NCBI GenBank assembly: GCA_964628305.1
Contig: CAZVNC010000001.1
Span: 1 to 31,199 of the forward strand
DNA length: 31,199 nucleotides
Reading direction: 5' to 3'
Source of the DNA: an uncultured Ideonella sp.
Lineage (GTDB): Bacteria; Pseudomonadota; Gammaproteobacteria; Burkholderiales; Burkholderiaceae_C
In this document: positions 2,191 through 31,199 of the stretch, in pieces
How positions within the stretch are numbered: the first letter of the stretch is position 1
How the letters are laid out: the number at the start of each line of letters is the position of its first letter
Notes under the pieces: model-generated
The model's database searches: none
What the model was told of the DNA's origin: nothing
The model's input: only the letters and a program-made list of their open reading frames with translations
Program-made: the position numbers and the translations under genes

Positions 2191-2221
2191 CGCCAAGCGC
2201 TCTAGGTGGTCGACGAAACCA

Positions 2222-2560
2222 TCAGGCCTTGTCGTCAGGCAGCTTGTAGTTGGCAAGCTTGTTCTTCTCGTCCTTCCAGCGATCGACTTCGGGCAGCGGA
2301 TCCTTGCTCGAGGAGAGCACCGGCCATTGCGGCGCGAAGCGCTTGTTGATGGCGAGAAAGACCTCCTGCCCGGCAGGCACGTCTTCCTCGGCGAAGATCG
2401 CCTCGACCGGGCACTCGGGGATGCATACGGCGCAGTCGATGCACTCGTCCGGATCGATGACGAGGAAGTCGGGGCCTTCGTGGAAACAATCGACCGGGCA
2501 GACGTCGACGCAGTCGGTGTATTTGCAAAGGATGCAGCTGTCGGTCACGACATGGGTCAT
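2222..2560 (-). CDS. fdxA: 7Fe ([3Fe-4S]/[4Fe-4S]) ferredoxin, Azotobacter FdI type
   Basis: MTHVVTDSCILCKYTDCVDVCPVDCFHEG...IDPDECIDCAVCIPECPVEAI is the FdxA signature. ATG at 2560 with GAGG upstream; the ORF-track extension to 2656 is unlikely. Confidence 0.92.
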   Translation of the reverse strand: MTHVVTDSCILCKYTDCVDVCPVDCFHEGPDFLVIDPDECIDCAVCIPECPVEAIFAEEDVPAGQEVFLAINKRFAPQWPVLSSSKDPLPEVDRWKDEKNKLANYKLPDDKA

Positions 2561-2642
2561 GCGGGTACCTCGTGGGTGATGAGGAGAGAGGAGAGGTGGC
2601 GAAAAAAACAGTTTGCCAGACGCCGGCGAAGGCGCTAAAGTC

Positions 2643-2686
2643 CACTCCCGGTTCATGGAGTGTTCACAACATCAACGTTAAGTGAA
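2643..2686. promoter_or_regulatory. Inverted repeats in the divergent fdxA/hnr promoter region; candidate TetR operators
   Basis: CACTCC-N8-GGAGTG (2643-2662) and TTCAC-N14-GTGAA (2663-2686) lie in the AT-richer gap between the two divergent operons. Short arms; function inferred only. Confidence 0.35.
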
Positions 2687-4354: not shown

Positions 4355-4359
4355 GCGCG

Positions 4360-5268: not shown

Positions 5269-5295
5269 ACCGAAGTCCGAGAGGAGTCCGAGTTG

Positions 5296-5937: not shown

Positions 5938-5978
5938 GCCGCCGGCCTTGTTTCGATACTCGAGCATTGGGGAAGCAC

Positions 5979-6563: not shown

Positions 6564-6615
6564 GGCAGGCAGTCGATCCGAAGGTTTTTCAACCCACTCC
6601 CACAGGAGACTGACG

Positions 6616-7827: not shown

Positions 7828-7836
7828 TTCTGCGTT

Positions 7837-7922
7837 GCTTCGATCGACATGGGCGCGTGCCCCACGGCACGTGCCCCATTCGATCCGCGCGCCATCGAAG
7901 CCGGTGGGCTGCAAAGCCCGCC
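7837..7922 (+). other. Intercistronic stem-loops downstream of the binding-protein gene (candidate mRNA-stabilising element)
   Basis: GGGCGCGTGCC-CCAC-GGCACGTGCCC (7851-7876), flanked by GCTTCGAT/ATCGAAGC (7837-7844, 7894-7901), then GGTGGGCT-GCAA-AGCCCGCC (7903-7922) with a GNRA loop. Confidence 0.5.
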
Positions 7923-7968
7923 CTGAGCGATTTCCGGTTCCCTCGAACCCGCAACCGCAGGTCCCGTC

Positions 7969-11386: not shown

Positions 11387-11930
11387 CGCAGGGGCCTTGG
11401 CGCCGGTGCGGCTGAAGGAATCCGTGTCCGCCACCATGCCCGCGCTCGTCGAGACGAAGCTCGTCGTGAACGGCAAGCCGCAGGCCCTGTCGTGTCTGCC
11501 CGGCACGACGCTGCTCACCGCGCTGCGCAATGACCTGTGCCTGAACGGCCCGAAGTACGGTTGCGGTCTGGGCGAGTGCGGCGCCTGCACCGTGCTCGTC
11601 GACGGCGTCGCGGCGCGCGCCTGCGTGATTCCGCTCGCCGGCGTTGCCGGCCGCTCGGTGACGACGCTCGAAGGGCTGGCTGACGAACGCGGACTGCATC
11701 CGGTGCAGAAGGCCTTCATCGACGCCCAGGCCGCGCAATGCGGTTATTGCCTGAACGGCATGCTGATGATGACGGTCGCGCTGCTCGCGCGCACGCCGCA
11801 GCCGACCGAGCAGCAGGTGCGCCAGGCGCTGTCGGCGAATCTCTGCCGTTGCGGCACGCACGTCGAGATCATCGCTGCCGCGCTGCGGGCGGCCGAATTG
11901 ACCGCGCGTGCGGCGAAAGGATCGGCGTGA
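11379..11930 (+). CDS. nicA: Nicotinate dehydrogenase small [2Fe-2S]x2 subunit (NicA-like)
   Basis: GPKYGCGLGECGACTV, AQCGYC and NLCRCGT xanthine-oxidase-family Fe-S motifs; directly upstream of a NicB-like gene. Start uncertain (GTG 11379 or ATG 11436). Confidence 0.8.
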   Translation: MSDAGALAPVRLKESVSATMPALVETKLVVNGKPQALSCLPGTTLLTALRNDLCLNGPKYGCGLGECGACTVLVDGVAARACVIPLAGVAGRSVTTLEGLADERGLHPVQKAFIDAQAAQCGYCLNGMLMMTVALLARTPQPTEQQVRQALSANLCRCGTHVEIIAAALRAAELTARAAKGSA

Positions 11931-14900: not shown

Positions 14901-15553
14901 GCGAAGGCAAGGCGTATCTCGGCGGCGCGTTCGTCAAGGGCTGGGAGGCACCGGCGCTCACGTCGGCGACGCGCGCCCCGGTGCCGTGGACCGAGCAGTC
15001 GCTGTTCGACTACCTGCGCGTCGGGCACAGCGCGCTGCACGGCGTCGCGTCCGGCCCGATGGCGCCGGTGGTGCGCGAGTTCTCCGCGCTGCCCGACGCC
15101 GACATCCGCGCGATGGCGCACTACCTGGCGTCGTTCAACCCGCCGCTGACAGACGCGCAGGCGGCGAGTGCAGCGGCGGCCGCGGTGGCGACGGCGCAGG
15201 CCGGTGCGGCGATGCTTGCCGGACCGGCGCAGCGCATGTTCGATACGGCGTGCGCCGGCTGCCACCACGACGGCGACGGCCCGCAATTGCTCGGCGCGAA
15301 CGTGCCGCTCGCGTTGAACAGCAACCTGCACGCGGACCGCCCCGACAATCTGCTGCGCGTGATCCTCGAAGGGCACCTCGAGCCGGCGTCGATCGAACTC
15401 GGCTTCATGCCGGCCTTTGGCGCGGCCTACAGCGACCGCCAGCTTGCTGAGTTGGCCGACTTCATGCGCCAGCGCTTCGCGCCCGGCAAGCCGCGCTGGA
15501 CGAATCTGGAGGCCGAGGTGGCGCGGGTGCGCGCCGCGCCGTCCAATCCGTGA
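11927..15553 (+). CDS. nicB: Nicotinate dehydrogenase large subunit (NicB-like): molybdopterin-binding domains, a transmembrane helix and three c-type cytochrome sites
   Basis: GHVDLGTGIRTALAQ, QGPTIASAS, SGCYGRN, ASWLRGVSALPN and GAGE, then a hydrophobic helix (WWAKGLALAASVAGVAAAAFGW) and three CxxCH motifs (CATCH, CGACH, CAGCH). This is the architecture known for P. putida NicB. GTGA overlap with nicA at 11927-11930. Confidence 0.82.
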   Translation: MSAARMLRTRRDFLQASGALVVMREPPEAQPQAPGQPPMIPPNPDEGVEILLAVWDDGRVTGLNGHVDLGTGIRTALAQIIAEELDVEPGQVDMVLGDTAMAPNQGPTIASASIQITAVPLRQAAAQARAFLLARAADALGAAAAELVVERGVINHGQRHIGYADLVRGERLHLMLDPEIAVKPVQQYRVVGQSAPRVDIAAKVAGELVFVHDKRLPGMLHGRVVRPPYAGADHGDFIGNTLESVDESSIAHIPGVRAVVVIRDFVGVVAEREEQAEAAALALKVVWRAWPGFPSLDDPARALRDNPAVARQVVDDGDVDAALSTAAHALHREYVWPYQMHASIGPSCGVAQWHGGDSHPALTVWTGSQNPHVLRADLSKLMQLPDVDVEVIRMEASGCYGRNSADDVCADAALLSRAVRAPVRVQLSREQENLWEPKGAAQLMTVRGALDAGGAMAAYDFATSYPSNAAPTLALLLTRTIEPLAQAFAMGDRTARPPYEVPNLRVTINDMAPILRASWLRGVSALPNSFAHESYVDELATAAGVDPVQFRLRHLTDPRAIDVLRSTAERAGWVAHTGPQQMESSGDRLRGQGVAYARYMHSKWPGFGAAWTAWVADVEVDRNTGEVHVSRIVVGHDSGQVVNPAGVRHQVQGNVVQTTSRALKERVEVDPATSAIVNREWGSYPILGFADLPTIEVHIMPRQSEPPLGAGESSSVPGTAAIANAIFDATGVRFRHPPFTAEVVRAAINPLPAPAAPPVEAVGHPTPADASWPRRRSWWAKGLALAASVAGVAAAAFGWRPAIAPVSRIDTSVYAADAIERGRVLAAAGNCATCHTAPGGAVNAGGLAMPTPFGTVYSTNLTPDADTGIGAWSFSAFQRAMREGVSRDGHLLYPAFPYTAFAKVSDDDLMALYAYLMVQPAVRAAVPETKLAFPFGMRPLLAFWNALFHDPKAVAQTDPVRSAQWNRGAYLVDGLGHCGACHTERNAFGAEREGKAYLGGAFVKGWEAPALTSATRAPVPWTEQSLFDYLRVGHSALHGVASGPMAPVVREFSALPDADIRAMAHYLASFNPPLTDAQAASAAAAAVATAQAGAAMLAGPAQRMFDTACAGCHHDGDGPQLLGANVPLALNSNLHADRPDNLLRVILEGHLEPASIELGFMPAFGAAYSDRQLAELADFMRQRFAPGKPRWTNLEAEVARVRAAPSNP

Positions 15554-17056: not shown

Positions 17057-18775
17057 CTAGCTGAACCTGGTGCGTTGCAGGGCCTGTTGCGTGATCGCAC
17101 CCAACGTCACACGCGTCGAGATCACTTCGGGGGAGAGCTTGATCTCGATGAGCGTTCCTTGTTCCCTGCCGAGTGCGGCGCGCAACGCTTCCTTGAACTC
17201 GGCAGCGTCCTTCACCGGCTCCGCATGCATGCCGTAGGCACGCGCCAACGCGCAGAAGTCCGGATTGATCAGCGTCGTGCCGCTGACGCGCTGCGGATAC
17301 TCGCGCTCCTGATGCATTCGAATCGTGCCGTACATCCCGTTGTTGAGCAGCAGGACGATCAACTTGGCGCCGTGCTGAGCCGCGGTTGCCAGTTCCTGCC
17401 CGTTCATCAGGAAGTCGCCATCGCCGCTGATCGTGAACGCGACCCTTCCCGTCGTCAGGTTCGCCGCGACCGCGGCCGGAATGCCGTACCCCATCGCACC
17501 ATTGGTTGGCGCAAGCTGTGTCTTGTGGCCCTTTGCCAAACCGTGATAGCGGAAGTAGCGGTGCGTCCAGCTTGCAAAGTTGCCGGCACCGTTCGTCAAC
17601 ACCGCGTCGGCAGGCAGTTGGCGCTGCAGCTCGGCGACGATCGCGGGCATGTCGACGGAGCCTTCGCTCGTCGGGTCCAACCCGGGTAAGGCCTCCGGCA
17701 TCAGATTGGCATCGTAGTCCGCATGCACCGCCTGGGCCCAGGTCGCCCATCGCACTGCAGTCGGTGGCACCAAGTCCTGCAACGAGTGTGCCGCCGCGTC
17801 GGCGGTTGCACAGATCGCGAGGTCAGCCCGATAGACGCGGTGCAACTCGTCGGCACAGGGATGGATGTGCACCAGCTTTTGAGACGGCTGCGGCACCGTC
17901 AGCAAGGAGTAGCCGCTGGTCGTCATCTCACCGAGTCGGGCACCGATCGCGATCACGAGGTCGCAGTCGCGGATGGTCCGGGCGAGTTTCGGATTGATGC
18001 CGATGCCGACGTCGCCTGCATACAGCGCGTGATGGTTGTCGAAGATGTCCTGAAAGCGAAACGCATTGCCCACCGGCAGCTGCCACGCCTCGGCGAACGC
18101 CTGCAGCGCGCGTGCACCGTCAGGGCTCCAGCGCCCGCCTGCGATCACGAGCGGGCGTTCGGCCGCCTGCAGCAAGGCACCCAACTCTCGCACTGCGGAT
18201 GGGGCCAACCCGGCTTGCGAGACCTCCGCGCGGGGGAGTGGCTTTGCGTCGACGTGCTGGTGCAGCATGTCCTCCGGCAGCACCAGAACCACGGGCCCGG
18301 GGCGACCGTTCATCGCGGTGGCAAAGGCGCGGGAGATGTACTCCGGGATTCGCGTGGCATCGTCGATCCGTTCGACGCGCTTGGCCAGCCCCGTGGTGCT
18401 CGGGCCGAACATCGACGTGTACTCGATCTCCTGGAACGCCTCGCGGTGTCGGAAGTCAGCGCCGACGTCGCCGACGAGCAGCACCATCGGGGTGGAGTCC
18501 TGGAACGCCGTGTGGACGCCGATCGCCGCATTTGTCGCCCCCGGCCCCCGCGTGACGAGGCACACGCCCGGGCGTCCGGTGAGTTTGCCGTGCGCTTCGG
18601 CCATGAACGCTGCGCCGCCTTCCTGGCGGCAGGTGATGAAGCGGATCATGTCGCAGTGTTCGTGGAAGCCTTCGAGTACTGGCAGATAGCTCTCGCCGGG
18701 CACGCCGAAAGCGACCTCGACGCCTTGCGCGATCAGGCATTCCACGACCAGGCTGCCAGCCAATTTTGCGGTCAT
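17057..18775 (-). CDS. ThDP-dependent enzyme, acetolactate-synthase-like fold; substrate unknown
   Basis: FGVPGESYL, catalytic Glu in CRQEGGAAFMA, TRGPGATN, and the ThDP motif GDGDFLMNGQEL...NNGMYG. RBS GAAGGAG. No regulatory small subunit gene adjacent. Confidence 0.85.
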   Translation of the reverse strand: MTAKLAGSLVVECLIAQGVEVAFGVPGESYLPVLEGFHEHCDMIRFITCRQEGGAAFMAEAHGKLTGRPGVCLVTRGPGATNAAIGVHTAFQDSTPMVLLVGDVGADFRHREAFQEIEYTSMFGPSTTGLAKRVERIDDATRIPEYISRAFATAMNGRPGPVVLVLPEDMLHQHVDAKPLPRAEVSQAGLAPSAVRELGALLQAAERPLVIAGGRWSPDGARALQAFAEAWQLPVGNAFRFQDIFDNHHALYAGDVGIGINPKLARTIRDCDLVIAIGARLGEMTTSGYSLLTVPQPSQKLVHIHPCADELHRVYRADLAICATADAAAHSLQDLVPPTAVRWATWAQAVHADYDANLMPEALPGLDPTSEGSVDMPAIVAELQRQLPADAVLTNGAGNFASWTHRYFRYHGLAKGHKTQLAPTNGAMGYGIPAAVAANLTTGRVAFTISGDGDFLMNGQELATAAQHGAKLIVLLLNNGMYGTIRMHQEREYPQRVSGTTLINPDFCALARAYGMHAEPVKDAAEFKEALRAALGREQGTLIEIKLSPEVISTRVTLGAITQQALQRTRFS

Positions 18776-18950: not shown

Positions 18951-18987
18951 GAGACATGTTGCGCTATAGTTAGTATACTATCAATCA
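18951..18987 (+). promoter_or_regulatory. Candidate sigma70 promoter of the DUF2848 gene overlapped by a palindromic operator
   Basis: GAGACA (18951-18956), 17-nt spacer, TATACT (18974-18979). Perfect palindrome TAGTATACTA (18971-18980) within ATAGTTAGTATACTATCAAT. RBS AAGGAG at 18993-18998. Confidence 0.6.
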
Positions 18988-19004
18988 AGCTAAAGGAGCT
19001 TCGG

Positions 19005-19709
19005 ATGAGTGATCTGCACACGCTGGATTTCGACTTCATCACCCAGCGCGAGACCGCGCATCGCACGACCACGATCGCGCGCGCCGTCATCGCCGGTTGG
19101 ACCGCGCGCGATGTGGCGGCCATGGAGCACCACATCGTCGAACTCGAGAAGATTGGCGTGCCGCGGCCTAAGCACACGCCGATGTTCTACCGCGTCGGAG
19201 CGCGCCGGATCACGACGGCGGACCGCATCGAGGCGGTTGGTGGGGACTCGTCGGGCGAGGCCGAGTTCGTGATCGTCAATGCTCACGGGCAGTTGTGGAT
19301 TGGCGTCGGGTCCGATCACACCGATCGAAAGGTCGAGACCTACGGCATCACGGTGTCCAAGCAGATGTGCGACAAGCCGGTGGCGCCGCAATTGTGGCTA
19401 CTGTCGGAGGTGGAGGCGCACTGGGATCGATTGCAACTGCATTCCGAAGTGAAGATTGATGGTCGCAGCAGCATCTATCAGGATGGCGCTGTCGCGTCGA
19501 TGCGCAGTCCTCGAGAGCTGATTTCGCTCTTCGAGCGCGACTACGGACCCTTCGGCGAAGGATCGCTGATGTTCTGCGGCACGCTCGCCGCGATCGGCGG
19601 CATCCGGCCCGCCGAGCGCTTCGAGTTCGCGTTGGTCGATCCGGTCTTCGAGCGGCGCATCGGGCACGCCTACGACGTGGCGATCCTTCCGATCGTCGAA
19701 GCCGAGTAG
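19005..19709 (+). CDS. DUF2848-family protein (FAH-like fold, function unknown)
   Basis: VIAGWTARD..AMEHHI.ELE.IGVPRP...P.FYRV, SSGEAE, GVGSDHTDRKVE, VSKQMCDKP, FCGT. ATG 19005 follows AAGGAG; the ORF-track extension to 18870 spans the promoter. Confidence 0.8.
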   Translation: MSDLHTLDFDFITQRETAHRTTTIARAVIAGWTARDVAAMEHHIVELEKIGVPRPKHTPMFYRVGARRITTADRIEAVGGDSSGEAEFVIVNAHGQLWIGVGSDHTDRKVETYGITVSKQMCDKPVAPQLWLLSEVEAHWDRLQLHSEVKIDGRSSIYQDGAVASMRSPRELISLFERDYGPFGEGSLMFCGTLAAIGGIRPAERFEFALVDPVFERRIGHAYDVAILPIVEAE

Positions 19710-19752: not shown

Positions 19753-21123
19753 TCATCTGCGCAGAGCCTGGAGTGCCGCCTCGGCCTGCTCGGCAATCGC
19801 CAGCAGACGCCGGTCCTGACCCGGGGCGCCGATCAGCATCAGGCCAACCGGTGGATCGCCACGGCGATGAATCGGAATCGAGATTGCACAGCCGTCGAGA
19901 AAGTTGACGAACGCCGGATTGCGCAGCACGAGCAGATTGGTCTTGTTGCTGACCTCGGATTGCTCGAGCTCGTCGAGTCGGGGCGCGACGATGGGCACGG
20001 TCGGGCAGAGCAGCACATCGAATGCGCGCATCTTCGGGTGCACGATGTCGTGCATGCGCCGGCGCGCTTCGAGAACATCGATGTAGTCGGCGGCACACTG
20101 CGAACGCCCGGCATCGAATCTCTGAAGAACCCACGGGTCGTACAGCTCGGAACGCTGGTCCAGCAAAGGCCGATGCCAGGCGTATGCCTCGGCGCCGACC
20201 AGCCCGCCCTTCGAATTGATGCGTGGGATCTGCTGCAACTCGGGCAGCGACGCTTCCTTCAATTGCACACCGGCGCCGGAAAGCTCGCTCAGCGCTCTCT
20301 CGAAAGCGCCGGCGACCTCATCGTCCATTCCATCCGTCGCGTAGGCGCCGATCAGACCGGCACGAAGGCCCGGCAGATCAGGCGCGGAACGCGCCTGCTC
20401 GGCGTCTTGTGCACTCGCGTCCGCAATGATGGCGTCGATCGCTGCGCAACAAGCCACCGAATTGGCAAGCGGTCCGATCGAATCGAGGCTCGATGACAAG
20501 GGCACCGCACCCTCGCGAGGGACGCGCCGGGCCGTCGGTTTGAAGCCTGTGATGCCACACAGCGCAGCGGGAATGCGGCAGGAGCCACCGGTGTCGCTGC
20601 CCAATCCGAAGGGCACCATGCCGTCGGCAACCCCGACCGCGGCGCCGGACGATGAACCGCCGGGGATTCGGCCTTGCTCGCGCTGCCAGGGGTTGCGCGG
20701 CGTGCCGTAGTGCGCGTTGATGCCGAGGCCGGAGTAGGCGAATTCGGTCATGTTCGTGCGGCCGACGATCACGAATCCGGCCGCCCGCAGCCGGGCGACG
20801 GCAGGGGCGTCGACTGTGGCATGGGGACGTCCGGCCAACACGCGAGACCCGGCACGCGTCTCCTGTCCGGCGACGTCGAACAAGTCCTTGATCGAGATCG
20901 GAATGCCGGCATACGGGCTCGGCGCGGCGCCCGCCGCCCTGAGCCGATCAAACGCACCCGCGCTAGCGCGCGCGCCGTCGGCGAATACGCCGATGAACGC
21001 GCGTGCCCCTTCGCCCGCGGGATCGAGCATCCGATCCAGGCTGTCTTCGACGAGTGCACGACTGGTTGTTTCGCCGCGCGCCAGCGCACGTGCAGCGGCC
21101 TTCAGCGTCAGTGGCTCGCCCAT
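19753..21123 (-). CDS. Amidase-signature family hydrolase
   Basis: SIKDLF (catalytic Lys), GRTNMTEFAYSGLG, PGGSSSGAA, GSDTGGSCRIPAALCG (Ser-cisSer-Lys triad). Start at ATG 21123 (GAGG upstream) or GTG 21147. Confidence 0.88.
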   Translation of the reverse strand: MGEPLTLKAAARALARGETTSRALVEDSLDRMLDPAGEGARAFIGVFADGARASAGAFDRLRAAGAAPSPYAGIPISIKDLFDVAGQETRAGSRVLAGRPHATVDAPAVARLRAAGFVIVGRTNMTEFAYSGLGINAHYGTPRNPWQREQGRIPGGSSSGAAVGVADGMVPFGLGSDTGGSCRIPAALCGITGFKPTARRVPREGAVPLSSSLDSIGPLANSVACCAAIDAIIADASAQDAEQARSAPDLPGLRAGLIGAYATDGMDDEVAGAFERALSELSGAGVQLKEASLPELQQIPRINSKGGLVGAEAYAWHRPLLDQRSELYDPWVLQRFDAGRSQCAADYIDVLEARRRMHDIVHPKMRAFDVLLCPTVPIVAPRLDELEQSEVSNKTNLLVLRNPAFVNFLDGCAISIPIHRRGDPPVGLMLIGAPGQDRRLLAIAEQAEAALQALRR

Positions 21124-21143
21124 ATCGTGCCTCGTCGTTTCCT

Positions 21144-21524
21144 TCACTGCGGATCGTAGTAGTGCATCTCGATCAGCAGCGCTCCGCCTTCGGAGCGGAA
21201 CGGACCGTGCCAGACGCCCGGCGGCCTGACTGCGTACGTGTTAGCGGCGAACTTCTCGCCCCCGGTGCCGTCCACTTCGCTGCTGACCCAGAGGTCGCCG
21301 CTCACGATGAAGACCTCTTCCCAGTAGTCGTGGATGATCTTCTCGGTGGTGAACGAACCTGGCGCCCAGCGCAGCAGCCGCGTGTGCCCGCCGCGCCGAT
21401 TCTCGCGATCCAGCGTACCAGAGATGATCTTCTGCTGAACGCCGGGCGGGAAGCCGGCAGGGGTCTCCCAGCCCGATTCCATGTCGACCTGATAGAACTC
21501 GCGATGCAGTCTGTTGACGGCCAT
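21144..21524 (-). CDS. Small cupin-domain protein (ChrR-like)
   Basis: 126 aa with cupin motifs HDYWEEVFIVSGDL and RPPGVWHGPF. Strong RBS GAAAGGAGAG before ATG 21524. Confidence 0.78.
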   Translation of the reverse strand: MAVNRLHREFYQVDMESGWETPAGFPPGVQQKIISGTLDRENRRGGHTRLLRWAPGSFTTEKIIHDYWEEVFIVSGDLWVSSEVDGTGGEKFAANTYAVRPPGVWHGPFRSEGGALLIEMHYYDPQ

Positions 21525-21550: not shown

Positions 21551-22870
21551 TCAGTCCTTGACCCGGGCGAGGCTGATGCCGCGCACGAATCCTTTCTCGA
21601 ACTTGTCCGTTTCGAACACGCTCTCGGGGATCTGGTAATAGTCGCCCGAGGCTTGCTGCTCGGCCGTGTTGCCGTACATGTGGATCGAATCGAACGGACA
21701 AGTCTGGGTGCACAGCTCGCAGCCGATGCAGTTGTGGTACAGCTCGCCCACCGTGGCGTCCTCGGCCTGGCGCAGCGCGTCGTAGAAGCAGGTCTGGATG
21801 CAGATCGTGCAGGTCGGGTTCTTGCAGGTGGCGTCCCTAACCTCGACGTGCATGCGGTCCTTGCGGAACTGCTCGCCGTAGTCCTTCACCGAGCGGCGCG
21901 ACGCGATGCCGAGCATCGATTCGATGTCATCGTAGCCGTGGTCGTCCATGAAGGCGTCCAGGCCGTCGATGATCTTGGGCAGGAACTTGATGCCCTTGAG
22001 CATCAGCACCGAGCCCACCTGCACCAGCGGCGCGCCGGCCATGATGAACTCGACGATGTCGCGGTGGTCGTAGACGCCGTTCGAGCCGGTGATCGGGATG
22101 CCGAGCTCGGTGTAGATGCGGTGGACCCAGCGCAGCGAGAGCGGCTTGGCCCAGACCCCGCCGATGCCGGCCGGGCCGCCGAGCCGCGGCGAGCCGGTTT
22201 CGATGTCGATCGAGAAGCCGGTGTACCTGTTGGTCGCGGTCACTGCCGAGGCTCCGGCCGCCTTCACTGCGCGCGCGACCTCGAGCACCGGAGACTGGTC
22301 TGGTGTGAGCTTGATGATGACCGGAATCTTCACCGCCTCGCAGACCCGCCGCGTGATCTCGGCGGCCACATCGGGCACCTGCCCGATCATGCTGCCGCCG
22401 TGGGTGCCGGGCATCATTGCCGGGTGCGGGCAGCCGAAGTTGAGTTCGACCATTGGCAGGCCGCAGTCCTCGATCGTGCGGCAGATGTCGACCCAGCTCT
22501 GTACGGTCTTGCCGCCTGCGCTACCGATCAGGTGCGAGCCACGATCCGCGGCGTACTTCTGCAGATCCTTGAGGTACGGTATCCACTCCCGCAACGGTGT
22601 GGACGAATAGCCGGAGCGGCTATAGAAGACGAAGTTCTTGTTGACCTTGCCCTTGATCGGCTCGTTCTTCTCGTTGAGGATCGCGTACTTCGAGTTCTGC
22701 GTCAGCCGCGCCATGTCCTCGATGTCGGTCAATGTTTTGATGATCATGCCGCCGGCGCCGGCGTCGACGCACTCGCGGATCACCTCGGGGCTGTTGGTCG
22801 TCTCGATCGATGCGATGACGACCGGGTTCTTGAACTTGACACCACAGAATTCGAGAGCCAGGTTTGCCAT
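21551..22870 (-). CDS. PreA/dihydropyrimidine-dehydrogenase-like FMN protein with C-terminal 2x[4Fe-4S] domain
   Basis: F.GVKFKNP..IAS, IIKT, ELNFGCPH (catalytic Cys loop), IIKLTP, TATN, GGP...KPLSL, ITGSNGV, VQVGS. C-terminal CKNPTCTICIQTC and CIGCELCTQTCP. RBS AGGAG. Confidence 0.82.
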   Translation of the reverse strand: MANLALEFCGVKFKNPVVIASIETTNSPEVIRECVDAGAGGMIIKTLTDIEDMARLTQNSKYAILNEKNEPIKGKVNKNFVFYSRSGYSSTPLREWIPYLKDLQKYAADRGSHLIGSAGGKTVQSWVDICRTIEDCGLPMVELNFGCPHPAMMPGTHGGSMIGQVPDVAAEITRRVCEAVKIPVIIKLTPDQSPVLEVARAVKAAGASAVTATNRYTGFSIDIETGSPRLGGPAGIGGVWAKPLSLRWVHRIYTELGIPITGSNGVYDHRDIVEFIMAGAPLVQVGSVLMLKGIKFLPKIIDGLDAFMDDHGYDDIESMLGIASRRSVKDYGEQFRKDRMHVEVRDATCKNPTCTICIQTCFYDALRQAEDATVGELYHNCIGCELCTQTCPFDSIHMYGNTAEQQASGDYYQIPESVFETDKFEKGFVRGISLARVKD

Positions 22871-22932: not shown

Positions 22933-22969
22933 CAATTGTTAGTATACGAACGATTGGCGCGCCGGTCAA
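22933..22969 (-). promoter_or_regulatory. Near-consensus sigma70 promoter for the preA-like/cupin/amidase operon, overlapped by a palindromic operator
   Basis: On the minus strand: TTGACC (22969-22964), 17 nt, TATACT (22946-22941). The imperfect 24-bp palindrome CAATTGTTAGTATACGAACGATTG (22933-22956) is centred on the -10 box. Confidence 0.75.
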
Positions 22970-22984: not shown

Positions 22985-24307
22985 TCATCGCTTGATCGCC
23001 ATCTGGTCCGGCAGCCAGGTCACGAGCTCGGGAAACAGATAGATCACTCCGACGAACAGCAGGAGGATCACGAAAAACGGAAAGGCGGCTTTCGTGACGA
23101 AGCCGATGTCGCGCTTCGTCATGCTCTGCAGCACGAAGAGGTTGAAGCCGACCGGCGGCGTGACCTGTGCCATCTCGACGACGATCACGACGTAGATGCC
23201 GAACCACAGCAGATCGAACTGCGCCGCGGTCACCATCGGCAACAGGACGGCCATCGTCAGTAGCACCATCGAAATACCGTCGAGCAGGCAGCCGAGAACG
23301 AGGTAGAGCAGGGTGATCGCAAGCAGCAGCTGTCCCTGCGACAGCCCCAGTTGCCCAACCCACTCCGCGAGCGCCATCGGGATACCGGTGAATCCCATCG
23401 CGATCGTGAGGAACGACGATCCAGCCAGAATCAGCATGATCATGGTCGTTGTCTTCATCGCACCCATCACCGTGGCGACAAAGGTTCGCCAACTGAATCC
23501 GCCCTGCACGACCGACAGAATCAACGCGCCGAGCACGCCGACCGCTGCGGATTCGGTCGCCGTGGCGATGCCGGCATAGATCGAGCCCAGTACGGCAACG
23601 ATCAGCAGGACCGTCGGCACGAGGTCGGCGCTGGCCTTGAGTTTGCCCAGAAAACTCACCCGCAGGTCGTTTACCGGGATGCGGTCGGCATTGATGATCG
23701 ACCAGGCGCCGACATAGGCCATGAACAGTGCGGCCAGCAGCAGCCCTGGAATCACGCCGGCGATGAAGAGCTTGTTGATCGACACGTCGGCCGTCACGCC
23801 GTAGACGATCATGATGATCGACGGCGGTATCAGCAGCCCCAGAGTGCCGGCGCCCGCCAGCGAGCCGACGACCATCTCGATCGGATAGCCGCGCTTGTTC
23901 AGCTCCGGCATCGTCATCTTTCCTATCGTCGCGCAGGTCGCCGCCGACGAGCCAGAGATGGCCGCGAAGATCGCGGAGCCGACGACGTTGACCTGCATCA
24001 GCCGGCCGGGCAAAGGCGCCATCCATGGCGCCAAGCCGCGAAACATGTACTCAGAGATCCGGGATCGAAACAGGATCTCGCCCATCCAGATGAACAGCGG
24101 CAGCGAGGTCAGCGTCCAACTCGTGAGCGACCCGAAGATCGTCGTCGCCATCGCTTCGCCGGGCATGCGCGTCGAGTACATCAAGGTCGCGACCAGGCCC
24201 ACGCCCAGCAGCGCAAGCCCGATCCAGACCCCGATGCCCAGCAGCAGGAACATCGCACCGATGATCGCAGCCGCGAGCAGCGGCCCCTGAAGTTCAGCGG
24301 TCGGCAC
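22985..24307 (-). CDS. dctM: TRAP transporter large permease
   Basis: LPLFIWMGEIL, FAAISGSSAAT, GTLGLLIPPSI, LFIAGVIPG, ATATESAA, LGCLLDG, TPPVGFNLFV. Start set at GTG 24307 (GGAGG 7 nt upstream, overlapping the dctQ end); uncertain. Confidence 0.88.
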   Translation of the reverse strand: MPTAELQGPLLAAAIIGAMFLLLGIGVWIGLALLGVGLVATLMYSTRMPGEAMATTIFGSLTSWTLTSLPLFIWMGEILFRSRISEYMFRGLAPWMAPLPGRLMQVNVVGSAIFAAISGSSAATCATIGKMTMPELNKRGYPIEMVVGSLAGAGTLGLLIPPSIIMIVYGVTADVSINKLFIAGVIPGLLLAALFMAYVGAWSIINADRIPVNDLRVSFLGKLKASADLVPTVLLIVAVLGSIYAGIATATESAAVGVLGALILSVVQGGFSWRTFVATVMGAMKTTTMIMLILAGSSFLTIAMGFTGIPMALAEWVGQLGLSQGQLLLAITLLYLVLGCLLDGISMVLLTMAVLLPMVTAAQFDLLWFGIYVVIVVEMAQVTPPVGFNLFVLQSMTKRDIGFVTKAAFPFFVILLLFVGVIYLFPELVTWLPDQMAIKR

Positions 24308-24812
24308 GGCCCACCTCCACATCTCCATGCTGCGCTTGGACCGCCGCCCCGCCCCAGACGCGCACGGCACGCTCGGCGACCGCTGCGAAGAAGGCGACTG
24401 CACCGAACGCCATCGCCCCTTGCGGAATCCAAATCGGCAGTGCGATCAAGCCCGAGCTGCGCTCGTCGAGCTGCCAAGATACCCAGGCGAGCTTGCAGAA
24501 GTGCCAGGCCAGATAGCCGCCCAGCGCCGCGGCGATCGTTACCGCGACGCGCTCCAGTACGCTGCGCACCGAAGGCGACACGTGCTCCAGGACCAGCGTG
24601 ACCCGGATGTGTTCGTCGTTCACGAACGTGTAGGCCAGCGCGAGGAAGGCCGAGGCACCCATGAAGTAGCCCGCGAACTCATCGGCCGAGCGCGGGATGT
24701 AGGGCGCGAACTGCCCGCCGAGCTGGTACAGGATCATCACCTCGATGGCGACGAAGCTGAGCGCGCCCAGAAAGGCGGATGCCCCGATGATCAAGCGCAG
24801 CACGGCGTTCAT
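24294..24812 (-). CDS. dctQ: TRAP transporter small permease
   Basis: 172 aa, four hydrophobic segments, ADEFAGY, FLALAYTF...EHIRVTL, IWIPQ. Lies between dctP and dctM. Confidence 0.85.
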   Translation of the reverse strand: MNAVLRLIIGASAFLGALSFVAIEVMILYQLGGQFAPYIPRSADEFAGYFMGASAFLALAYTFVNDEHIRVTLVLEHVSPSVRSVLERVAVTIAAALGGYLAWHFCKLAWVSWQLDERSSGLIALPIWIPQGAMAFGAVAFFAAVAERAVRVWGGAAVQAQHGDVEVGRADR

Positions 24813-24854
24813 CCTGCAGGCCCCCTGGCGATTCGCCGATGTATCGATCCGCGT

Positions 24855-25832
24855 CTACTTCCGGTAGGCCTCGACCAGCGCCTTGCCGTCCGGCCCCGCC
24901 GTGGCGAGCCATTCGTCGACGAGTTGCTTGCCGATCTGGTTGAAGTCGGCAGCGAGCTTGGGTGAAGGCGGCAGAACTTTCATGCCGTGCTCGGAGAGCA
25001 CCTTCTTCGTCGCGTCGGCGACTTGCTCGCTCGCCGCCCAGCCCGCCTCCTCGGCCTTCTTCGCCTCGGCAAGCACCGCGTCCTGGGTCGCCTTGTCGAG
25101 CGCATTGAACGCGGCCTTGTTGACGATCACCATGTTCTTGGGCAGCCAGGCCTGCACATCGTAGAAGTACTTCAGCGACTCCCAGGCCTTGTAGTCGACG
25201 GCTGACTGCGCCGACGACATCAGCGAGTTGATCTTGCCAGTCGCGAGCGCCTGCGCCACCTCGGCGGCCTGGATCGTGACCGGGCGCGCCTTGACGAGCT
25301 CGCCGATACGGGAAGTCTGTTTGTCGTAGGCGCGGAAGTTCAGGCCTTCCAGATCGGCGGCCGACTGCACCTCCTTCGCGGTGATCAGGCCCTGCGGAGG
25401 CCATGGCACGGCAAACAGCAGGCGCATGCCCTGCGCGTCGAGCGCCTTCTCGATATACGGCCGCTGCACGGTCCAGAGCTTCTTCGCGTCGGCGTAGCTC
25501 GTCGCCAGAAACGGCAGGCCATCGACGGCGTAGAGCGGATTCTCGTTGACGAGCGTGACCATCAGCACCTCGCCGATCGGCACCTGCCCGGTCTGGACGG
25601 CGCGCTTGATCTCCGGCATCTTGTACAGCGACGCCCCCGAATGAACCTTCAGGACGAACTTGCCGCCGGTCGCCTGCTTGACCCCGGCTGCGAAGCGGTC
25701 GATGTTCTGGGTGTGGAAGTTGGTCGGCGCGTACGGCGTTGGCATGTCCCAGCTCTGCGCGTGTGCAGCACCGGGAAAGATCGCAATTGCAGCCGCAGCG
25801 GCGATGGAGGCAGTGAGCTTCGACATGTGCAT
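24855..25832 (-). CDS. dctP: TRAP transporter substrate-binding protein
   Basis: Signal peptide (AAHAQ), WDMPTPY, IKRAVQTGQVPIGE, DGLPFLA, WPPQGL, DLEGLNFRAY (conserved Arg), PKNMVIVN. ATG 25832 follows AAAGGA. Confidence 0.88.
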   Translation of the reverse strand: MHMSKLTASIAAAAAIAIFPGAAHAQSWDMPTPYAPTNFHTQNIDRFAAGVKQATGGKFVLKVHSGASLYKMPEIKRAVQTGQVPIGEVLMVTLVNENPLYAVDGLPFLATSYADAKKLWTVQRPYIEKALDAQGMRLLFAVPWPPQGLITAKEVQSAADLEGLNFRAYDKQTSRIGELVKARPVTIQAAEVAQALATGKINSLMSSAQSAVDYKAWESLKYFYDVQAWLPKNMVIVNKAAFNALDKATQDAVLAEAKKAEEAGWAASEQVADATKKVLSEHGMKVLPPSPKLAADFNQIGKQLVDEWLATAGPDGKALVEAYRK

Positions 25833-25854
25833 TGGAGATCCTTTCGTGGTGGGG

Positions 25855-26451
25855 TCAGACAAGTTGCTTGGAGTCGGCGTTCGATCCGGAGAGCCTTTGA
25901 CCTTGCGGACGCAACGCCGTTCGGCCGTACACGTTGTTCGCTTCGACCAGGTCATGCAGCAGTTGCATGAACATCGTCCGCTCGCCCTCATCCAGCGGCG
26001 CGAGGAGGCGCTTCTGCGCCTCCTGCATGCGCGGGTAGATACGGGCGACGAGTTCGGCCCCCTCGCGGCTGGCCAGGCAGAGCTTGCGGCGCCTGTTGTG
26101 CGGATCGACGACGCGGGCGACAAGCTTGCGCGACTCGAGGCGCTTCAACACATCGTGGACGTTGGCCCGGTCGATGCCGAGTTCCTCGGCGACCGAGAAC
26201 TGATCCAGCCCCGGCATGTCGACGAGGATGCTCATCAGGCCGTACTGCACCGGCGTCATGCCGTACTCCTCGAGCACCTCCATGAACATCGAGACATGGA
26301 TCTGGTGCAGGCGTCGGACGAGGAACCCCGGGCGCGCCCAGAGCGAGGTGTGCTCGCGCATGCGAAACGCATTCTGATCCGCCTTCGCCTGGGCTCGGCG
26401 GACGGCGCTGATGTCGGCCGCGCTCTTGCGTCGTAGCGAAGGCTTGCTCAT
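25855..26451 (-). CDS. MarR-family transcriptional regulator
   Basis: RPGFLVRRLHQ, MTPVQYGLM, LDQFSVAEELGIDRANVHDVLKRLESRKLVAR, DPHNRRRK. Start uncertain (ATG 26451 chosen). Confidence 0.87.
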   Translation of the reverse strand: MSKPSLRRKSAADISAVRRAQAKADQNAFRMREHTSLWARPGFLVRRLHQIHVSMFMEVLEEYGMTPVQYGLMSILVDMPGLDQFSVAEELGIDRANVHDVLKRLESRKLVARVVDPHNRRRKLCLASREGAELVARIYPRMQEAQKRLLAPLDEGERTMFMQLLHDLVEANNVYGRTALRPQGQRLSGSNADSKQLV

Positions 26452-26486
26452 GTTCGTGCAATCAAGGTTGGGTGATGTTCCGCAGT

Positions 26487-27622
<1,136 letters not shown>

Positions 27623-27626
<4 letters not shown>

Positions 27627-28450
27627 GCCAGGATGTCCTCGAGGGCACGGCGCAGCATCGCCCGGCAGGCCTGCTGCCGCGCCGGTGGGGCGCCGTGCAG
27701 CGCGGGGCGGCAGGCGAGGTCGAGTTGCTCTTCGCTCAGCGCCTCGCGTCCGTTGCGCGCGATGTCGCCGGCCAGCCCGGCAAGCGCCGTCGGCCGGCCG
27801 GCGGGCGTGCCGATGAAAACCCGGGCGACGCGTCGCGGCGGATCGAGCAGCACCGCGACGGCAGCCTCGGCGAACTCGCCCGGTTTGCGGCAGAACTTGC
27901 GATAGGACCACCGCGCCTGCGCCGACAGCCGGGGCCAGTGCACCGCGGTGAGCAACTCCGCGGGCTGGAGCGCCGTGACATAGGCGCCCGACATGAACGC
28001 ATCGGCGGCGACGCGCCTTGTCCCCGAGCGGCCCTGAATCTCGATGCTGGCGCCCCAGGTCGCTGCGATCAGCGGCCAGTCGCCCGCCGGGTCGGCATGC
28101 GCGAGGCTGCCGCCGACCGTGCCGCGGTTGCGAATCGCGCGGTAGGCGATGCCGCGCGCCGCGTGGGCGAGCGGCTCAAGGCCGGAGATCGCGTTCGCGC
28201 GATCCTCGAACCAGGCGTGCGTCGTGCAGGCGCCGATGCGCACGGCGGCGTCGGCCTCGTCGACTTTGGTCAGCGCGTCGATCGCCGAAATGTCGATCAG
28301 CCGCGCCGGACGCACCAGGCGCAGGTTGAGCATCGGCCCGAGCGACTGCCCGCCGGCGACAACCTTTGATTCGACCTCGGCGTCTCCCAGCGCGTCGAGC
28401 GCCTCGGCGATCGAGCGCGCCTTCATATAGTCGAAACGCGCCGGCTTCAC
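27623..28450 (-). CDS. Mo-hydroxylase FAD-binding medium subunit (CoxM/CutM-like)
   Basis: MKPARFDY, VAGGQSLGPMLNLRL, IRNRGTVGGSLAHADPAGD. GTGA overlap with the large-subunit stop. Confidence 0.88.
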
Positions 28451-30855
28451 GATCCGGCTCCCGGCGCCGCAGGGCCGGCTGCCATCGCCGCAAGGAGCCG
28501 CGCCGGAGTCAACGGTGTCTGCGACAACTCGGCGGCGCGGCCGCGCAGCGCGTCGTTGACGGCGTTGAAGATCGCTGCCGGGGGCGCGATCGCACCGCCT
28601 TCACCCATGCCCTTGATGCCGAACTTAGTGTACGGCGACGGTGTCTCGGAGTGGTGGATCCGGATCGGCGGCGACTCGGTCGCGCCCGGCATGATGTAGT
28701 CCATCAGCGTCGACGCGAGCGGCTGGCCGTTCGCGTCGTAGGGCGACTCCTCGTAGAGGGCGGTGCCGATGCCCTGCACCACGCCGCCAATCGTCTGCCC
28801 TTCGACGATCATCGGGTTGACCATCGTGCCGCAGTCCTCGCTGATCACGTAGTCGAGCAGCTCGACCGACCCGGTGCGCGGATCCACGGCGACGACCACC
28901 GCGTGCGACGCGTAGCTGAACACGCCGGTGTCGATCTTGGGCCGGTGCGAGACGCTGACCTCCAGGCCGCCGCGATCGACGTCCTTGGGCAGCCGCTCGG
29001 GCCGCACGAACCAGGCCTGTGCAACATCGCGAATCGATACCTCGCCCGCCGGCCCCACGACCCGCCCCGATTCGAAGCGAGCCTCCTGCTCGCCGCAGCC
29101 GAGCAGCGCCGCGCCGATGCGCAGCAGCCGCGGCACGAGCGCCTCGCAGGCCTCGGCGACCGCGCCTCCGGCCATCACGATGCTGCGCGACGCGTAGGTT
29201 CCGGTCGAGAATGGCGTCGTTCCGGTGTCGCCATGCACGACGCGGATGCGTGCGACGTCGACGCCAAGCACCTGGTGAGCGACCTGCGCCAGCGTCGTCT
29301 CCATGCCCTGGCCGTGCGAGTGCACGCCGACGCAGAGTTCCAGTCCGCCGTCGGGCGTCACGCGCACCGTCGCCTGGTCGTAGCCCGGAACGAGCGGCAG
29401 GCCCCACGACGCGAACACCGATGTGCCGTGCGCCGACTGCTCGCAGTAGCTCGCGAAGCCGACGCCGATCAGCCTGCCGTCGTTCTCGCCGCGGCGCTGG
29501 CGCTCGCGCACCGCATCGAGGCCGATCGCATCGACCACCCATTCGAGGCTGCGCGGATAGTCGCCGCTGTCGTAGTGCTTGCGCGCCACGTTGTTGTAGG
29601 GCATCTGCTCGGGCCGGATCAGGTTCTCGGCGCGCACCTGCCACGGCTCGCGGCCGACCTCGCGCGCGATGGCGTCGATCAGCAATTCGATCGCGAAGCA
29701 CACGCCGGTGCGCGCGACGCCGCGATACGGCAGGAAGCCGGGCTTGTTCGTCGCGACGCACCACGTCTTGGCGCGATAGCCGGCGATCGCGTAGGGGCCG
29801 GGCAGGTTGCCGGTCGCCTGCCCGGGCTCGAGGCCGACGGTGAACGGCCAGTTCGAGTACGCGCCGCCGTCGATCGTGATCTCGGCGTCGAGCGCGAGCA
29901 GCCGGCCGCGATCGTCGACGTGCGCCGCGAGCCGGTAGTGGTGCTGGCGCGTGTTCGCCGCCGCGACCAGGTGCTCGCGCCGGTCCTCGACGTAGCGAAA
30001 CGGCGTGCGATAGCGCAGTGCGAGCCACGCGACGCAAAGCTCTTCGGGCTGGAGCACGCACTTGTAGCCGAACGCGCCGCCGACGTCGGGCGCGATGATG
30101 CGCAGCTTGCGCTCCTCGATCCCCAGGCACTGCGCCAGGCCGACGCGGATCATGTGCGGCACCTGCGTCGAGCTGTAGACGATCAACTGGTCGGCGCGCT
30201 CGTCCCAGTAGGCGACGATGGCCTTGCCTTCCATCGGATTCATCGCCTGGCGCGCGAGCGAGATCTCGCGCCGCACAATCCGCGTCGCGCGCGCTGCCTG
30301 CTCGTCGAAACTGTTGTCGTAGGCGAGCGAGAGAAAGAGGTTGTCGCGCCATTCGTCGTGCACGCGCACGCCGGGCTCGGCGAGCGCGCGGTGCGCGTCG
30401 ACCAGCGCCGGAAGCGGCTCGATGCGCAGATCGATCTCCTCGGCAAGATCCTCGGCCATCGCGCGTGTGGGCGCGACGCACATCGCGACCGGCTCGCCGA
30501 CGAAGCGCACCTTGCCCGATGCGAGCGCGTGATGCTCCGAGACCTGATAGCTTGGCAGCGTCGAGGTTGCGACGATCGGCTTCAGGCCTTCCAGATCGTC
30601 ATTTACGAACACCCGACCTTCCGATCCGGACGGCTTGGCTATGGCGACGATGCGGCCATGCGCGATCGGGCTGCGCAGGAACGCCACCTCCTGCTGACCC
30701 GGCAGCAGCATGTCCGATACATACTGGCCGCGGCCGCGCATCAGCCGCGCGTCTTCCTTGCGCGGCATGCGCGCGCCTATGCCCTGCTTCCGATCGTCCA
30801 TCGGGTCGTGGTTCACGGTGTCGCTGCCATCGGCGCTTGCTGGATCCGGCTTCAT
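28447..30855 (-). CDS. Xanthine-oxidase-family Mo-hydroxylase large subunit (CoxL/CutL-like, not a CO dehydrogenase)
   Basis: RKEDARLMRGRGQY, STQVPH, VGGAFGYK, active-site loop PYRGVAR, HGQGMETT, TYASRS, GGVVQGIG..LYE, KGMGEGG (catalytic Glu). Confidence 0.88.
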   Translation of the reverse strand: MKPDPASADGSDTVNHDPMDDRKQGIGARMPRKEDARLMRGRGQYVSDMLLPGQQEVAFLRSPIAHGRIVAIAKPSGSEGRVFVNDDLEGLKPIVATSTLPSYQVSEHHALASGKVRFVGEPVAMCVAPTRAMAEDLAEEIDLRIEPLPALVDAHRALAEPGVRVHDEWRDNLFLSLAYDNSFDEQAARATRIVRREISLARQAMNPMEGKAIVAYWDERADQLIVYSSTQVPHMIRVGLAQCLGIEERKLRIIAPDVGGAFGYKCVLQPEELCVAWLALRYRTPFRYVEDRREHLVAAANTRQHHYRLAAHVDDRGRLLALDAEITIDGGAYSNWPFTVGLEPGQATGNLPGPYAIAGYRAKTWCVATNKPGFLPYRGVARTGVCFAIELLIDAIAREVGREPWQVRAENLIRPEQMPYNNVARKHYDSGDYPRSLEWVVDAIGLDAVRERQRRGENDGRLIGVGFASYCEQSAHGTSVFASWGLPLVPGYDQATVRVTPDGGLELCVGVHSHGQGMETTLAQVAHQVLGVDVARIRVVHGDTGTTPFSTGTYASRSIVMAGGAVAEACEALVPRLLRIGAALLGCGEQEARFESGRVVGPAGEVSIRDVAQAWFVRPERLPKDVDRGGLEVSVSHRPKIDTGVFSYASHAVVVAVDPRTGSVELLDYVISEDCGTMVNPMIVEGQTIGGVVQGIGTALYEESPYDANGQPLASTLMDYIMPGATESPPIRIHHSETPSPYTKFGIKGMGEGGAIAPPAAIFNAVNDALRGRAAELSQTPLTPARLLAAMAAGPAAPGAGS

Positions 30856-30876: not shown

Positions 30877-31199
30877 TCAACGCGTCTTCCCACCAGGGGA
30901 CGCAGCCGGATCGGCTGGTGCGCCGAAGGGATCAAGGGAGTGGTCGGGGTCGTCGGCCTGGTGCGGTACCTCGATGCGGACCTTGTCCAGATCGACCTCC
31001 TTGTGCTTCTCCAGGTTGCCGGTCACGAGCCCCGGAAACGCGATCACCAGCCCCACCATCACCAACTGAATGATCACGAACGGTATCGCGCCGCGATAGA
31101 TGTCGGCGGTCTTGATCGACTTGTCAGCAACCGACCGCAGGTAGAACAGCGCAAAGCCGAAAGGCGGGTGCATGAACGAGGTCTGCATGTTCACCGCCA
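30877..31199 (-). CDS. dctM: Second TRAP large permease, C-terminal fragment (5' partial)
   Basis: AVNMQTSFMHPPFGFALFYLRSVA...IYRGAIPFVIIQL..VGLVIAFPGLV, a DctM C-terminus. Runs off the window edge; stop is 21 nt before the large-subunit start. Confidence 0.8.
   Translation of the reverse strand, partial: AVNMQTSFMHPPFGFALFYLRSVADKSIKTADIYRGAIPFVIIQLVMVGLVIAFPGLVTGNLEKHKEVDLDKVRIEVPHQADDPDHSLDPFGAPADPAASPGGKTR

Follow-up and report, generated by a model that had tools for sequence, protein, structure and literature searches.

Picolinate, which chelates metals and is a common metabolite derived from tryptophan, has a single genetically defined breakdown route, and this route needs two oxygenases. 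PicA, the hydroxylase of this route, has been shown experimentally to be a picolinate 6-hydroxylase, and the legend of a figure showing the domains of PicA and similar hydroxylases lists an SRPBCC domain (10.1101/530550). In Bordetella bronchiseptica RB50 the picolinate (pic) cluster spans bb0268-bb0283 and includes BB0280 (PMC10142695). For nicotinate, 6-hydroxynicotinate reductase (Hnr), reported from Eubacterium barkeri and from the nicotinate clusters of Azorhizobium and Bradyrhizobium, reduces the pyridone made by a molybdenum (Mo) hydroxylase, after which a hydrolase opens the ring without oxygen (PMC3511419). Here we describe a reductase gene in a stretch of 31,199 nucleotides from an uncultured Ideonella sp. 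(hereafter the window; GenBank assembly GCA_964628305.1, contig CAZVNC010000001.1, positions 1 to 31,199 of the forward strand), whose product resembles the pyrimidine reductase PreA and dihydropyrimidine dehydrogenase (DPD). This enzyme is very probably a non-pyrimidine ring reductase acting after a Mo hydroxylase; with somewhat less assurance, it is probably a 6-hydroxypicolinate reductase that works without PreT in an apparently undescribed, reductive pathway of picolinate breakdown.

The gene starts with an ATG preceded by a good ribosome-binding site 6 nucleotides upstream, and its product combines a DHO_dh domain (PF01180, E = 1.9e-33) with a 4Fe-4S dicluster domain (Fer4_21). Its flavin mononucleotide (FMN) barrel, the two FMN lysines (K45 in GMIIKT and K187 in IIKLTP), the catalytic Cys loop and eight cluster cysteines place it in the superfamily of dihydroorotate dehydrogenase (DHOD) and DPD. 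The motifs listed in an earlier note on this DNA (NFGCPH, IIKT, IIKLTP, TATNR and FYSRSGYS) were all recovered in the translation, where CIGCELCTQTCP was confirmed as well. According to the HMMER alignment with pig DPD, K45 corresponds to the lysine of 'TKT', ELNFGCPH to ELNLSCPH, IIKLTP to FAKLTP and TATNR to TATNT. The uracil-contact set of DPD is only partly kept: Asn668 and Asn736 are represented by N144 and N214, whereas Thr737 is replaced by R215 at exactly the same position in this alignment, and the Asn609 loop reads S84-R85-S86. The first Fe-S motif, CKNPTCTICIQTCF, corresponds to C-x4-C-x2-C-x3-C-F. It had been called unusual, which holds for the C-x4-C spacing, peculiar to this family, but not for the loss of the Pro, an ordinary feature (C-Y in E. 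coli PreA, C-N in pig DPD).

A homologue search gave 1852 matches below 1e-20, of which the best 120 are 66-95% identical to the reductase and come mainly from Burkholderiales, Hyphomicrobiales and Rhodobacterales. In the family alignment of 121 sequences K45, S84, R85, S86, G87, Y88, N144, C147, K187, N214, R215 and the eight cysteines are invariant or nearly so, the loop FYSRSGYS has no conserved Asn, and the first-cluster spacing is C-x5-C in 14 members. When representatives at 50% identity were taken, the next relatives were at most 39% identical. A tree of 113 sequences is split, with 98% support, into a half that contains E. coli PreA together with all N-T and N-S sequences, none of them carrying Arg215, and an opposite half that holds every Arg215 sequence, the reductase included. 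Within this opposite half the query family forms a fully supported clade (100%) with a long stem, nested in an R85-bearing subclade. R85 and R215 are still invariant among sequences of as little as 35% identity, a level at which N144 itself varies. Together, the lack of Arg215 in the PreA half and this deep invariance indicate that true PreA lacks the arginines and that they define a clade. The earlier note had described the two arginines as new, and alignments and tree agree: true PreA and DPD lack these residues, which do not vary within the family or its wider clade. Judged from sequence, the two arginines thus mark a large uncharacterised clade that is sister to true PreA, and the protein is no isolated case. 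Many family members are labelled 'tRNA-dihydrouridine synthase' at NCBI, or PreA or DHOD at JGI; these labels look like misannotations caused by weak matches to Dus and DHO_dh.

The gene neighbourhood provides the link to ring hydroxylation. On the minus strand the window carries, in this order, the large, flavin adenine dinucleotide (FAD) and [2Fe-2S]+CoxG subunits of a Mo hydroxylase, a MarR regulator, DctP, DctQ and DctM from a transporter of the tripartite ATP-independent periplasmic (TRAP) type, the reductase, a cupin and an amidase. In a survey of 80 family loci, with up to 10 kb of flank on each side, two layouts recur: the window type with cupin, amidase and DUF2848, and a HyuAB type, commonly arranged as MarR, reductase, HyuA, HyuB, DctP and the Mo large, FAD and Fe-S/CoxG subunits. 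HyuAB, which is closest to ATP-dependent caprolactamase, was found in 51 loci, against 18 with the amidase, and no locus has both. A Mo hydroxylase is present in 49 of the 67 loci that have at least 8 kb of flank.

The hydroxylase of the window is of the PicA type, having three subunits and a large subunit that falls in or beside the PicA1 clade; the closest solved structure to the latter is quinoline 2-oxidoreductase. In the large-subunit tree the PicA1 proteins from classical pic contexts (a label given where the gene context matches the published layout, PMC10142695) are interleaved with the HyuAB-type subunits, and the clade of the window is sister to them (100%). An SRPBCC/CoxG domain is fused to the Fe-S subunit, a domain of the same kind as that listed for PicA. 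In the HyuAB-type clusters the binding protein shares 76% identity with BB0280 (PDB 4YIC/4YZZ), and in 13 of 14 Alcaligenaceae genomes genes for BB0280-like and Mo proteins adjoin the published pic layout, recognisable by a divergently oriented Rieske system of four components together with genes for MarR and Amidohydro_2. A PicB-type Rieske alpha subunit was not found in four genomes carrying the reductive cluster (G001, G002, G004 and G118 by our handles) nor in the 72% complete metagenome-assembled genome (MAG) from which the window derives. An Amidohydro_2 query from a classical pic locus matched only paralogues at 45% identity or less, a result without bearing on PicC.

The DctP of the window belongs to the pyroglutamate-binding DctP6/DctP7/6WGM subfamily. 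A predicted model of the binding protein was weak (predicted local distance difference test score, pLDDT, 51) and served solely to retrieve the titles of fold-match entries. Members of the subfamily bind a ring N-H/C=O beside a carboxylated carbon, a shape that 6-hydroxypicolinate has in common. The suggestion that the substrate is a carboxylated non-pyrimidine ring fits the TRAP carboxylate transporter, the PicA-type N-heterocycle hydroxylase and the lactam or amide hydrolases alike, and 6-hydroxypicolinate fits them in particular. One locus (L182, G118:C1:2510700-2530600) has a DctP6/7-type TRAP system, a BB0280-type binding protein, HyuAB, the reductase and the hydroxylase in a single cluster.

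The absence of a PreT partner and of pyrimidine-pathway neighbours, both noted earlier for this locus, is borne out by the survey. The window has no PreT/GltD-like gene, dihydropyrimidinase or beta-ureidopropionase, and a GltD/PreT-like gene (Fer4_20 plus Pyr_redox_2) was found in none of the 80 family loci and in one of 80 loci of the wider clade. PreT was likewise not found in four of five genomes: the Fer4_20 proteins of Zwartia, Sheuella and two Burkholderiales with complete chromosomes are only the GltD beside GltB and a form of 635 residues, whose equivalent in the source MAG adjoins the gene for a pyruvate:ferredoxin-oxidoreductase gamma subunit. The fifth genome, Defluviimonas, has a separate true PreA (722 bits) adjoining a PreT-like gene, as well as a PreA-like copy (240 bits). 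An orphan GltD-like NAD(P)-binding Fe-S flavoprotein, preceded by the gene for a 466-residue protein without Pfam or NCBIfam match, was observed in locus L002 (G000:C91:5190-7890) of the source MAG and is a candidate electron feeder.

We infer that the donor is a low-potential carrier (a 7Fe ferredoxin) and/or the hydroxylase itself, rather than a PreT-type NAD(P)H module. Hnr is ferredoxin-dependent. In six alphaproteobacterial loci (L076-L078, L081, L083 and L084, e.g. L084:13912-14205) a 7Fe ferredoxin gene lies directly downstream of DUF2848, in line with a ferredoxin donor, which is plausible. A complex prediction for the reductase with the FAD subunit of the hydroxylase scored 0.00, which has no bearing either way.

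In the pathway that we propose, the TRAP system would import picolinate or a very close 2-carboxy N-heteroaromatic, which the PicA-type hydroxylase would convert into 6-hydroxypicolinate (6-oxo-1,6-dihydropyridine-2-carboxylate). Two electrons would pass through the [4Fe-4S] clusters of the reductase to FMN, from which hydride would be transferred to the pyridone ring with Cys147 as presumed proton donor, N144 and N214 holding the lactam N-H/C=O as in DPD and the clade-specific R85 and R215 holding the ring carboxylate. The regiochemistry suggested here would give the non-aromatic 6-oxo-tetrahydropyridine-2-carboxylate, which may be opened by the amidase or, in most relatives, by the caprolactamase-like ATP-dependent HyuAB. 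The resulting 2-amino or 2-oxo C6 dicarboxylate could then be passed on to the FAH-fold DUF2848 protein, the cupin and the thiamine diphosphate (ThDP) enzyme, so that reductase and hydrolase would replace the oxygenase branch (PicB/PicC). The predicted model of DUF2848 (pLDDT 92) has the fold of the fumarylacetoacetate hydrolase (FAH) family (Z 21 to fumarylpyruvate hydrolase) with the E-x-E...D pattern kept, and this predicted fold points to a 2-oxo-dicarboxylate intermediate in the lower pathway.

A palindrome rich in AT (core TTAGTATAC), set in a genome whose GC content is 65-70%, is common to the promoter regions of the reductase operon and of DUF2848/ThDP enzyme and thereby links the operon with DUF2848; the pair is probably the operator of the MarR regulator. 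The coordinates of these features are collected in Table 1.

Table 1. Features of the reductase locus in the window (ORF, open reading frame; MoCo, molybdenum cofactor; aa, amino acids; nt, nucleotides).
Feature	Position	Strand	Basis
PreA-like FMN / 2x[4Fe-4S] reductase, 439 aa; proposed 6-hydroxypicolinate reductase	21551..22870	-	ORF, Pfam, alignment, tree
Active-site loop N144-F-G-C147-P-H (equivalents of DPD Asn668/Cys671), invariant in family	22424..22441	-	pig DPD alignment, family alignment
Loop S84-R85-S86-G87-Y88 where PreA/DPD have the F-x-N-(I/M)-E uracil-binding loop; R85 invariant	22607..22621	-	alignments
N214-R215; R215 at DPD Thr737 position, invariant in family and wider clade	22226..22231	-	alignments, tree
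C-terminal ferredoxin-like domain, eight invariant Cys, two [4Fe-4S] sites, first with C-x4-C spacing	21695..21826	-	Pfam, family alignment
ChrR-type cupin, small, 126 aa; 26 nt 3' of reductase; stop overlaps amidase start	21144..21524	-	gene layout
Amidase-signature amidase (PRK07056 type); would open the ring or deamidate	19753..21147	-	profiles, synteny
DUF2848 protein, FAH fold, E-x-E...D metal-site pattern; linked to reductase clade across deep divergence	19002..19709	+	domains, model, synteny
ThDP-dependent enzyme (PRK08199 type), divergent from DUF2848; candidate 2-oxoacid decarboxylase, lower pathway	17057..18775	-	profiles
TRAP transporter DctP/DctQ/DctM; DctP closest to pyroglutamate-binding DctP6/DctP7/6WGM subfamily	22985..26123	-	domains, structure-sequence matches
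MarR-family regulator; ORF as listed, true start probably later	25855..26613	-	domain
Three-subunit Mo hydroxylase, PicA-like (picolinate dehydrogenase clade)	26487..30855	-	domains, tree
Hydroxylase large MoCo subunit	28447-30855	-	
Hydroxylase FAD subunit	27623-28450	-	
Hydroxylase [2Fe-2S]+CoxG/SRPBCC subunit	26487 to ~27620	-	
AT-rich operator-like palindrome, copy 1, 65-85 nt upstream of reductase	22935..22954	.	sequence
AT-rich operator-like palindrome, copy 2, ThDP-enzyme/DUF2848 intergenic	18966..18985	.	sequence
7Fe-type ferredoxin (Fer4 + DUF3470) in neighbouring nicotinate module; candidate electron carrier	2222..2671	-	domains

A second TRAP permease of the DctM type, of which the window holds the C-terminal end (30877-31197) before its edge cuts the gene, lies upstream of the Mo large subunit. 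Positions 243-15553 hold a separate nicotinate module, which comprises an enamidase-like amidohydrolase, a TetR regulator, the 7Fe ferredoxin, an ORF of unknown function (4479-5405), two AA_synth/DUF1185 genes, a Liv-type ABC importer and NicA/NicB with cytochrome c domains. It also includes an Hnr homologue (2744-4354) that has no Pfam match and was named through the annotations of relatives about 80% identical to it.

Beyond the family, members of the clade that are 35-53% identical and keep both arginines were found in sediment, lake and digester metagenomes beside FAD, [2Fe-2S] and MoCo genes. Hydroxylase genes accompany them in 36 of 80 loci (23 of 36 where the flank is 8 kb or longer), often only 20-40 nucleotides away, and DUF2848 lies directly upstream in 31 of the 80. 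This synteny supports a general partnership between hydroxylase and reductase, the hydroxylases concerned being remote in the large-subunit tree. It is conceivable, though we regard it as a doubtful extension, that the Arg-Arg clade as a whole consists of dedicated partner reductases of Mo hydroxylases of the xanthine dehydrogenase family, in which the electrons of hydroxylation would be reused to dearomatise the product in a redox-neutral couple independent of O2 and NAD(P)H. The electrons would travel from the FAD/[2Fe-2S] subunits to the [4Fe-4S] chain of the reductase either directly or via the 7Fe ferredoxin. Examples of such distant loci lie among L101-L180 (e.g. L109:2904-9161, L128, L135 and L153), in which no window-type amidase was seen. 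A variant cluster (L089/L101:8001-16554) combines the reductase and the FAD, Fe-S and Mo subunits with a short-chain dehydrogenase/reductase, an ILVD/EDD dehydratase and Amidohydro_2, and may serve an O-heterocyclic or another ring acid.

Different readings of the reductase were weighed against these data. The closest to the one proposed here keeps the same enzyme logic and changes the substrate to another 2-carboxy N-heteroaromatic, for example pyrrole-2-carboxylate (which would yield 5-oxoproline), pyrazine-2-carboxylate or a picolinate with substituents like quinolinate. We consider this unlikely, even though the binding protein of the window is of the pyroglutamate-binding DctP6/7/6WGM type, HyuAB enzymes include ATP-dependent lactamases of the 5-oxoprolinase type, and the hydroxylase is merely sister to the PicA1 clade at 62-65% identity. 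The window-type and HyuAB-type reductases are about 80% identical, which suggests one substrate, and the HyuAB clusters have a BB0280/PicT-like binding protein and hydroxylases nested among PicA1, while L182 unites both binding-protein types. For pyrrole-2-carboxylate in particular, 5-oxoproline would be beyond the reach of an ATP-free amidase, and in the Rhodococcus pathway 5-hydroxypyrrole-2-carboxylate is hydrolysed without prior reduction. As for 6-hydroxynicotinate, the nicotinate module of the window has its own, unrelated Hnr homologue, which argues against this compound as the substrate of the reductase.

That the enzyme works oxidatively like a DHOD, desaturating imported 5-oxoproline or 6-oxopipecolate and passing electrons out via its Fe-S clusters with the Mo hydroxylase acting later, would agree with its place in the DHOD superfamily, with the pyroglutamate-type transporter protein and with the lack of a reductant-supplying subunit. 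It is nevertheless improbable, as on chemical grounds the C-H beside the carboxylated carbon of these compounds is not carbonyl-activated, unlike in dihydroorotate, and openers of saturated or partly reduced lactams are encoded immediately downstream; moreover, PicA-type hydroxylases act first, on the aromatic acid, in classical clusters (10.1101/530550). An ordinary PreA with its PreT encoded elsewhere in an incomplete genome is the least probable of all. The PreA-like architecture, the catalytic Cys, Asn and Lys, the PreA labels that JGI gives to relatives, and the incompleteness of the MAG with its two unplaced GltD-like genes would speak for it. However, the reductase scores 234.3 bits against the PreA equivalog NCBIfam NF006183, below the cut-off of 335, and is placed by the tree in the half without PreA; it has other residues in place of the uracil-contact Asn and Thr; PreT is missing from all 80 family loci and from four genomes altogether, the one PreT-bearing genome has its own true PreA beside PreT, and no dihydropyrimidinase or ureidopropionase accompanies the gene. 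True PreA was rejected on these grounds.

Several observations weigh against our assignment of a PreT-independent 6-hydroxypicolinate reductase. The earlier note had equated Asn609 of DPD with a Ser followed by an Arg; the lack of a conserved Asn in the loop and the invariant R85 stand, while the exact partner is ambiguous by about two residues, being F82 with HMMER, S86 in a six-sequence MAFFT alignment and S84 in the 113-sequence MAFFT alignment, and a solved-structure search with residues 1-125 alone left the loop region unaligned. With regard to the substrate, the cluster of the window differs from the BB0280-linked HyuAB type in the family of its transporter protein and in having an amidase for HyuAB, so that the compound could be a picolinate analogue, and the 62-65% identity of its hydroxylase to PicA1-type subunits points the same way. 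That picolinate itself is bound and turned over is supported only by the kinship with BB0280 and by the ligand in PDB 4YIC, which is presumably picolinic acid. If plain 2-oxoadipate is the product, the part played by an enzyme of the FAH fold is difficult to explain. Regarding the donor, two GltD-like genes lie on other contigs of the 72% complete MAG, neither of them beside a PreA-like gene. Furthermore, six clade proteins of about 700-870 residues (P0136, P0171, P0198, P0214, P0222 and P0253) have an N-terminal Arg215-type barrel followed by PreT-like Fer4_20 and Pyr_redox_2 domains and then a ferredoxin domain, so that the DPD architecture is circularly permuted; use of NAD(P)H modules is thus within the reach of the clade as a whole, and independence of NAD(P)H is no clade rule. 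Finally, no biochemistry was found in the literature for any family member.

The literature likewise yielded no description of a 6-hydroxypicolinate reductase, of a reductive picolinate route or of DPD-like enzymes acting with Mo hydroxylases. A paper on 2,8-dioxopurine was considered as a precedent and discarded, the enzyme there being YgfK, which does not have the DHOD fold. As far as sequence and context reach, the interpretation given in the earlier note is supported.

If our assignment is correct, the cluster would represent an oxygenase-free picolinate route that mirrors the Hnr/enamidase route of nicotinate with unrelated proteins and is widespread in freshwater Burkholderiales and in Rhodobacterales. 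It would offer a first functional handle both on a large PreA-like clade now labelled PreA, DHOD or 'tRNA-dihydrouridine synthase' and on DUF2848, and a way to understand how a DPD-type Fe-S/FMN module works without its NAD(P)H-feeding half, with R85 and R215 as two diagnostic arginines for a simple re-annotation. Should the redox-neutral couple exist as well, it would open picolinate here, and in bacteria of sediments and digesters it would act on different ring acids yet to be identified.

Compared with E. coli PreA and domains IV-V of DPD, the reductase has the same FMN triosephosphate isomerase (TIM) barrel, both FMN lysines, the N-x-x-C-P-H acid loop, the second and third substrate Asn (N144 and N214) and the C-terminal domain with two [4Fe-4S] clusters, and by analogy a hydride-plus-Cys-proton mechanism is presumably similar. 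It differs from them in the loop Asn, which is replaced by Ser-Arg, and in the Thr after the strand Asn, which is replaced by Arg. It is only 29% identical to E. coli PreA, from which it is also distinguished by a 13-residue insert after the first lysine and by an acid loop 3 residues longer (2 longer than in DPD), as well as by the C-x4-C spacing of the first cluster, a C-terminal tail of about 40 residues, and the lack of a PreT partner or pyrimidine-pathway neighbours. Class 1B DHOD (PyrD/PyrK) provides the best sequence matches among solved structures (E ~5e-33 over the barrel) and, in the orotate-reducing direction, the same reduction of a carboxylated N-heterocycle at a C=C bond as is proposed here; unlike this class, the reductase has a fused Fe-S domain with two [4Fe-4S] clusters and no FAD/[2Fe-2S] PyrK subunit, does not keep the Asn of the N-x-x-G-L loop and occurs in a catabolic genomic context.

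With Hnr the reductase would have in common its proposed role, the reduction of a pyridone made by a Mo hydroxylase, while being unrelated in sequence and fold; homology was rejected after BLASTP against the Hnr homologue of the window gave E = 3.6, and it is therefore fitting to describe the reductase as a functional analogue of Hnr with a different fold. The two routes would also differ in the ring isomer, 2-carboxy in the proposed substrate and 3-carboxy in the Hnr route, and in the hydrolase, an amidase-signature enzyme or HyuAB instead of enamidase. With the pic pathway of Alcaligenes faecalis JQ135 and Bordetella bronchiseptica RB50 the locus shares a three-subunit PicA-type Mo hydroxylase with SRPBCC/CoxG on the Fe-S subunit and the same gene order, a MarR regulator and, in HyuAB-type clusters, a PicT/BB0280-type binding protein (PMC10142695), whereas the branch formed by the PicB Rieske monooxygenase, the PicC decarboxylase and the 2,5-dihydroxypyridine dioxygenase gives way to a PreA-like reductase and a lactam or amide hydrolase.

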